Shown: positions 41,232 through 41,304 of the stretch, one piece after another | Layout of the letters: each line of letters starts with the position of its first letter | Numbering within the stretch: the first letter of the stretch is position 1 | From: Escherichia coli | Lineage (GTDB): Bacteria > Pseudomonadota > Gammaproteobacteria > Enterobacterales > Enterobacteriaceae | Length of the DNA stretch: 64,000 nt | Direction: 5' to 3' (one strand) | Assembly (NCBI RefSeq): GCF_048403405.1 | Contig: NZ_CP183129.1 | The notes under the pieces: generated by a model | Databases searched by the model: none | What the model was told of the DNA's origin: nothing | The model's input: the letters and a program-made list of their open reading frames with translations, nothing else | Translations under genes and position numbers: made by a program

Positions 41232-41304
41232 AAAAAGGCCACTCGTGAGTGGCCAAAATTTCATCTCTGAATTCAGGGATGATGATAACAAATGCGCGTC
41301 TTTC
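41232..41304 (-). ncRNA. micA: Small regulatory RNA MicA (SraD)
   Basis: Minus strand reads GAAAGACGCGCATTTGTTATCATCATCCCTGAATTCAGAGATGAAATTTTGGCCACTCACGAGTGGCCTTTTT: MicA as I recall it, with terminator hairpin and U-run, in the gshA-luxS intergenic region. Confidence 0.88.

Follow-up and report, generated by a model that had tools for sequence, protein, structure and literature searches.

A small RNA gene between gshA and luxS of an Escherichia coli strain is very probably the known sigma-E-dependent gene micA

The small RNA MicA (SraD, gene b4442, Rfam family RF00078) of Escherichia coli K-12 is the closest described system to the locus reported here. In the review literature, SraD is credited to Argaman et al. 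2001 as its first finders, and both the pairing of MicA with ompA mRNA and the dependence of this interaction on Hfq are given as proven by gel shifts and compensatory mutations (Udekwu 2005, Rasmussen 2005, via PMC4618604). The same review lists lamB, ompX, phoPQ and several envelope-related mRNAs as further direct targets, and reports an Hfq-protected site in the linker that joins the two stem-loops of the RNA, with probable binding of Hfq to the poly(U) tail as well (PMC4618604). An RNA of ~70 nt has been detected on published Northern blots (PMC1851643, PMC4618604), and its K-12 sequence is identical to the one described below. By experiment, the micA promoter is strictly sigma-E-dependent, such that a delta-rpoE strain is without MicA (PMC1851643). 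Specifically, the published promoter has a spacer of 16 nucleotides, a discriminator of 6 nucleotides and a -10 box that is 100% identical to that of rpoH P3, and an AT-rich element is also described in that study (PMC1851643).

Several other RNAs follow a similar regulatory plan. RybB and MicL are enterobacterial, sigma-E-dependent Hfq sRNAs that share with MicA the logic of a sigma-E promoter, a 5´ seed and the repression of mRNAs for outer-membrane proteins or lipoproteins (PMC1804206, PMC4102768). These two RNAs differ from MicA in that their sequences, loci and target sets are unrelated. VrrA of Vibrio cholerae is likewise described as sigma-E-dependent and as a repressor of ompA that pairs through its 5´ region, but it belongs to a different organism and, at 140 nt, is longer than MicA (PMC2628432). 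An RNA from Bordetella pertussis, again a different organism, is called a MicA homologue in the title of its report and reportedly acts on ompA (PMC12235514). The VrrA and Bordetella RNAs are functional analogues or distant relatives of MicA, and are not micA.

We analysed a 64,000-nucleotide stretch of an E. coli chromosome (hereafter the window), in which a first-pass annotation had described an exact MicA-like sequence with an intrinsic terminator on the minus strand. The match to MicA is literally exact. The minus strand of positions 41232 through 41304 is identical at 73/73 positions to K-12 micA, which the curated MG1655 record (NC_000913.3) places at 2814802-2814874, between luxS and gshA. 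The entire 149-nt spacer that separates the gshA stop from the luxS start is also the same as in K-12 (149/149). When the whole window is searched with the Rfam 15 covariance models, which that annotation had suggested as a check, RF00078 is matched at 41233-41304(-) with 83.9 bits, about twice the family's gathering score of 41 (E = 1.4e-11). This match spans model positions 1-75 of 75, and thus represents the full model rather than a truncated part of it. The coordinates of the gene, its parts and its neighbors are collected in the table.

Table. Coordinates of micA, its promoter and RNA elements, and the neighboring transcription units within the window
Feature	Position	Strand	Basis or remark
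gshA (glutamate-cysteine ligase)	39667..41223	+	ORF; RefSeq annotation of identical locus; convergent neighbor
Long luxS leader (P1 transcript, sigma-S promoter)	41041..41372	+	Published transcription start (PMC2956633); antisense across micA
micA (73-nt MicA/SraD sRNA, GAAAGACGCGCAUUUGUUAUCAUCAUCCCUGAAUUCAGAGAUGAAAUUUUGGCCACUCACGAGUGGCCUUUUU)	41232..41304	-	+1 is G 41304; 3´ end in U-tail at 41232; Rfam and K-12 identity
Rho-independent terminator: 7-bp GC-rich hairpin 41237-41254 (GGCCACUCACGAGUGGCC), then UUUUUCUUUU, with U-tail 41232-41236	41232..41254	-	Terminator scan
A/U-rich single-stranded linker AAAUUUU	41255..41261	-	Unpaired in Rfam consensus and MFE fold; published Hfq-protected site
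Stem-loop 1 (CAUC-C-CUG / CAG-A-GAUG), MicA nt 24-43	41262..41281	-	Rfam consensus and MFE fold
5´ seed, MicA nt 7-24 (CGCGCAUUUGUUAUCAUC)	41281..41298	-	Predicted to pair with K-12 ompA -22..-5
sigma-E -10 element TCTGA	41311..41315	-	Positions -11 to -7; T-11, C-10, T-9 and A-7 invariant (108/108)
sigma-E -35 element TGAACTC	41332..41338	-	Positions -34 to -28; read from sequence; AAC at -32..-30 invariant
AT-rich T6 element	41349..41354	-	Positions -50 to -45, upstream of -35; on + strand in short luxS leader
luxS (S-ribosylhomocysteine lyase)	41373..41888	+	ORF and annotation; divergent neighbor

All hallmarks of MicA that can be examined in sequence are found at this locus: the covariance model, identity with the type gene, the genomic location, the promoter, the RNA structure and the seed. 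The strain shares with K-12 the 73 nucleotides of the gene, the 149-nt spacer, the sigma-E promoter, and the neighbors with their orientation, and differs from it only as a host strain, with 44 altered positions (~1.3%) in the 3.5 kb around micA and ~2% divergence over the window. We find nothing in the sequence that would argue against this identity, and put the probability that positions 41232-41304(-) represent the micA gene of Escherichia coli at roughly 97%. The gene is therefore already known: it is the same micA in a different E. coli strain, and involves no new biology. The first-pass annotation had also called the RNA a known regulator of ompA, phoPQ and others, which agrees with the sequence being that of the experimentally characterised K-12 gene. 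The geometry it gave is likewise exact when judged by the ORF coordinates. Specifically, the 3´ end of MicA lies 8 nt after the gshA stop, convergent with gshA, and 68 nt separate its +1 from the ATG of luxS, from which it diverges.

The gene is nearly universal in its species and is held in a fixed setting in related genera. Of 5426 complete E. coli genomes, 5423 contain the 73-nt sequence, always on the chromosome and usually as a single copy; 5097 of these matches fall in the band of at least 99% identity, which at a length of 73 nt leaves no room for a mismatch in the aligned part. A search with a 401-nt region across E. coli yields the same picture. To extend the comparison to other species, an exact 24-mer from the 5´ region of MicA was matched against a collection holding one genome per species. 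At least 120 loci were recovered, from Escherichia, Salmonella, Citrobacter, Enterobacter, Kluyvera, Pantoea, Erwinia, Tatumella, Serratia, Rahnella, Yersinia, Hafnia and Edwardsiella, among others. Among the matches listed, gshA is downstream and convergent and luxS is upstream and divergent in 111 of the 111 loci that have room for both genes, and the remaining 9 of the 120 listed loci are truncated where the contig or the locus ends. Counted singly, gshA has the same position and orientation in all 114 listed loci in which it is detectable, as does luxS in all 117 in which it is detectable.

Upstream of the micA +1, the sequence reads TGAACTC, a 16-nt spacer, TCTGA, a 6-nt discriminator and then the initiating G. 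These are the elements of a sigma-E-type promoter, namely a GGAACTT-like -35, a 16-nt spacer, a TCTGA-like -10 and a 6-nt discriminator, and their arrangement is the architecture published for micA (PMC1851643). The same elements emerge when upstream sequences from other Enterobacterales are aligned on the +1 without gaps. Among the matches listed, 108 distinct sequences are invariant at A-32, A-31, C-30, T-27, T-11, C-10, T-9, A-7 and T-1, whereas the spacer between the two boxes is near random. The T-tract at -50 to -45 is also nearly invariant in these 108 sequences from many genera, with 1.4-2.0 bits per position. On the opposite strand this T6/A6 tract (41349-41354) precedes the luxS Shine-Dalgarno sequence by 6 nt, and it could serve micA as an UP-like element, serve the luxS leader, or both. 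A sigma-70 match on the + strand inside micA (ATGATA-18-TATACT, 9/12) was taken as a chance occurrence, with ~0.6 such matches expected and its position off the published luxS starts.

The predicted structure of the RNA is also that of MicA. The minimum free energy (MFE) fold of the 73-nt RNA has a value of -20.5 kcal/mol (z = -2.98), and 0 of 200 dinucleotide shuffles are as stable. This fold agrees with the Rfam consensus on stem-loop 1 and on the terminator hairpin. Most of the 5´ region is single-stranded: the Rfam consensus leaves it unpaired up to nt 23, and the MFE and centroid folds add to it a weak helix of 3-4 bp (nt 5-8 with 15-18) that is open in the consensus. The intrinsic terminator of the first-pass annotation is borne out, as it is part of the MFE fold and is called on the minus strand alone.

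Comparison of 74 distinct MicA homologues among the matches listed lends further support to the two helices. Taken together, 99.1% of their cells hold standard pairs, and slid controls in which the partners were moved by 1-3 columns are paired in only 28-52% of cells. Considered separately among these listed homologues, stem-loop 1 has 99.0% of cells paired and 3 pairs that changed on both sides, and the terminator helix has 99.2% of cells paired, with a closing pair that is A-U in 64 sequences and U-A in 6. The two helices thus contain 4 pairs with double-sided changes in the 74 listed homologues. None of 500 shuffles reaches the observed number of paired cells, the double-sided changes or the covariation score, and 10 of 500 reach the observed value for further pair types. 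Because the loci were picked by an exact 24-mer, the lack of variation in the first 28 nt is partly by construction. This segment contains the 5´ half of the lower stem in stem-loop 1, and with this selection real covariation can be read at 4 pairs only. The strand of the RNA is also indicated by the first stem, in which six G-U or U-G wobble cells would become C-A or A-C mismatches if read on the opposite strand, and therefore fit an RNA made from the minus strand.

The ompA gene is outside the window, and the K-12 ompA leader was therefore used to compute the expected target duplex. Nucleotides 7-24 of MicA would pair with ompA positions -22..-5, across the Shine-Dalgarno region, with a duplex energy of -21.7 kcal/mol. 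As many as 14 of 1000 mononucleotide-shuffled seeds pair with ompA equally well, which makes this complementarity only moderately significant. A duplex computed between full-length MicA and the ompA leader (127-nt, -44.5 kcal/mol) was discarded as meaningless since it ignores intramolecular structure, and the unpaired 5´ 24 nt were used instead. The A/U linker and the U-tail are both present in this RNA, and would provide the Hfq-binding sites known from the literature.

From these features and the literature on MicA, the course of regulation can be projected as follows. RNA polymerase carrying sigma-E would start at G 41304 under envelope stress or in stationary phase, as reported for MicA and as we infer for this strain. 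Transcription would end at the GC hairpin and U-tail to yield an RNA of ~72 nt, to which Hfq would be bound at the A/U linker and at the U-tail. The single-stranded 5´ end of the RNA, at about nt 7-24, would then pair with the ribosome-binding region of ompA, and overlapping 5´ sequences would pair with those of phoP, lamB, ompX and others. Such pairing should block translation and bring about mRNA decay, such that less outer-membrane protein is made while the envelope is stressed. MicA is in this respect a central regulator of the sigma-E envelope-stress response, whose targets comprise ompA, phoPQ, lamB, ompX and others, and luxS in cis.

This last target is a result of the position of the gene. 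For luxS, Udekwu (2010) described a sigma-S-dependent transcript, P1, whose start was mapped to a G at -332 relative to the AUG, a position within the 3´ end of gshA, and found that a processed luxS species, R3, requires both MicA overexpression and RNase III (PMC2956633). In the window, the published P1 start maps to position 41041, which is a G, and the flanking sequence (40978-41063) is identical to that of K-12. The description of micA in the first-pass annotation as antisense-adjacent between gshA and luxS holds, and can moreover be extended, as micA is fully antisense to the published long luxS leader. As transcription of the P1 leader passes through micA on the other strand, MicA should also be a cis-antisense RNA. 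Specifically, MicA and the long luxS leader driven by sigma-S would form a perfect duplex that would be cut by RNase III. On these grounds MicA would combine action in trans with a cis-antisense role at the gshA-luxS locus, with the physiological weight of the luxS effect coming from one paper.

The surrounding DNA includes a run of 523 nt (41065-41587) that has no difference at all from K-12, and that reaches from the 3´ end of gshA across micA and the spacer to nucleotide 215 of luxS. This stretch may be due to chance or to a local constraint from the overlapping transcripts. It is conceivable, if on balance rather unlikely, that the strict order of gshA, micA and luxS is kept by selection for effects in cis instead of mere historical linkage, with MicA as the obligatory antisense partner of read-through gshA transcripts and of long luxS transcripts. 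Were this so, AI-2 and glutathione metabolism would be coupled to envelope stress. An effect of MicA on luxS as a cis-antisense RNA has already been published for E. coli, and only its generality and its selective importance would be new.

Could these sequence features be explained without a separate small RNA? The hairpin might be nothing other than the terminator of gshA, or a bidirectional terminator, with the rest of the region being ordinary intergenic DNA. Its location 13 nt past the gshA stop codon would suit this role, as would its arms, which form a perfect inverted repeat. However, a scan of both strands for terminators calls none on the + strand, where the hairpin is followed by AAAAUUUCAUCU and not by a run of U residues. 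A terminator for gshA would also leave unexplained the sigma-E promoter at a fixed distance, which is invariant in 108 sequences among the matches listed, as well as the 50 conserved nucleotides upstream of the hairpin and the match to the full Rfam model. Finally, the ~70-nt RNA seen on the published Northern blots noted above (PMC1851643, PMC4618604) speaks against this explanation, and we regard it as extremely improbable. A protein-coding origin is more remote still, with a likelihood close to nil. A 48-aa ORF that starts with ATGAAAGACGCG is listed mechanically at 41160-41306(-), but its ATG is located 2 nt upstream of the mapped +1 and hence is absent from the sigma-E transcript. This ORF also continues through the terminator into sequence antisense to gshA, and across species it contains indels of 1-4 nt that are incompatible with a conserved reading frame.

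Alternatively, the conserved sequence might serve as a cis-regulatory element on the + strand, in the long 5´ leader of luxS, and not as a trans-acting RNA from the minus strand. The long luxS transcript does cross the region (PMC2956633), and luxS is the upstream neighbor in every locus examined among the matches listed. Against a leader element as the full account are the U-tail, the sigma-E promoter and the G-U wobbles, all of which are specific to the minus strand, and the fact that the most conserved part of the RNA is complementary to the leader of ompA, an unlinked gene. As the sole explanation, a luxS leader element is contradicted by these observations and is very unlikely. Regardless, a functional luxS leader and MicA are not mutually exclusive, because the luxS leader is itself a cis target of MicA.

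The fact that a gene of this kind is easily overlooked had been raised by the first-pass annotation, which included micA as invisible to ORF-based annotation. Indeed, in 40 of 40 sampled complete RefSeq genomes of E. coli, the NCBI pipeline has annotated no feature under the 73-nt match. Of the annotated records that we looked at, the curated MG1655 entry alone lists micA. As a point about annotation only, ORF-based readings of the gshA-luxS locus therefore miss a functional gene that is near-universal in E. coli. The further statement that other ORF-less gaps are without comparable sRNA signatures is consistent with two sources. An Rfam scan of the whole window at gathering thresholds yields six matches, which are MicA and the five tRNAs of the serV-argVYZQ cluster, and within the 65 kb that are collinear with the window, the curated K-12 record has micA as its sole non-tRNA RNA gene. 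A second, permissive scan with Rfam (E <= 0.5), likewise over the entire window, adds no further sRNA, and its sub-threshold matches occur only on or between the tRNAs. Neither RybB nor MicL is found in the window by the scan at gathering thresholds or by that at E <= 0.5.

The sub-threshold candidates from the permissive scan were plastid UTR families, antisense to tRNAs, and RtT, and they were rejected as chance or tRNA-derived matches. The tRNA cluster itself (37595-38319) consists of one tRNA-Ser and four identical copies of tRNA-Arg. Its spacers include one of 201 nt and two of 66 nt, as compared with two long spacers in K-12. The RtT-like match (29.2 bits versus a threshold of 45) is at 37791-37901, in the long 201-nt spacer.

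Elsewhere, the window is collinear with K-12 positions 2794247-2855486 in reverse orientation, at ~98% identity, and three sites carry additional DNA. Between hycI and ascB, ~965 nt (12917-13881) stand in place of 151 nt of K-12. This insert holds a HigB-like toxin gene at 13081-13392(+) (Pfam PF09907, 82 bits), which is followed with a 4-nt overlap by a gene for a 139-aa HTH_3 protein at 13389-13808(+). The two constitute a toxin-antitoxin pair that is absent from this site in K-12. Between ygaM and nrdH, ~1.9 kb (55770-57714) replaces 73 nt of K-12. Encoded there are a 143-aa protein of the carboxymuconolactone-decarboxylase/AhpD family at 55863-56294(-) and, divergent from it, a 444-aa regulator of the MocR type, with GntR and aminotransferase-fold domains, at 56382-57716(+). 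Lastly, the proX-ygaY intergenic region has 360 nt (47890-48249) in place of 99 nt of K-12, and this sequence is GC-rich and repeat-like.
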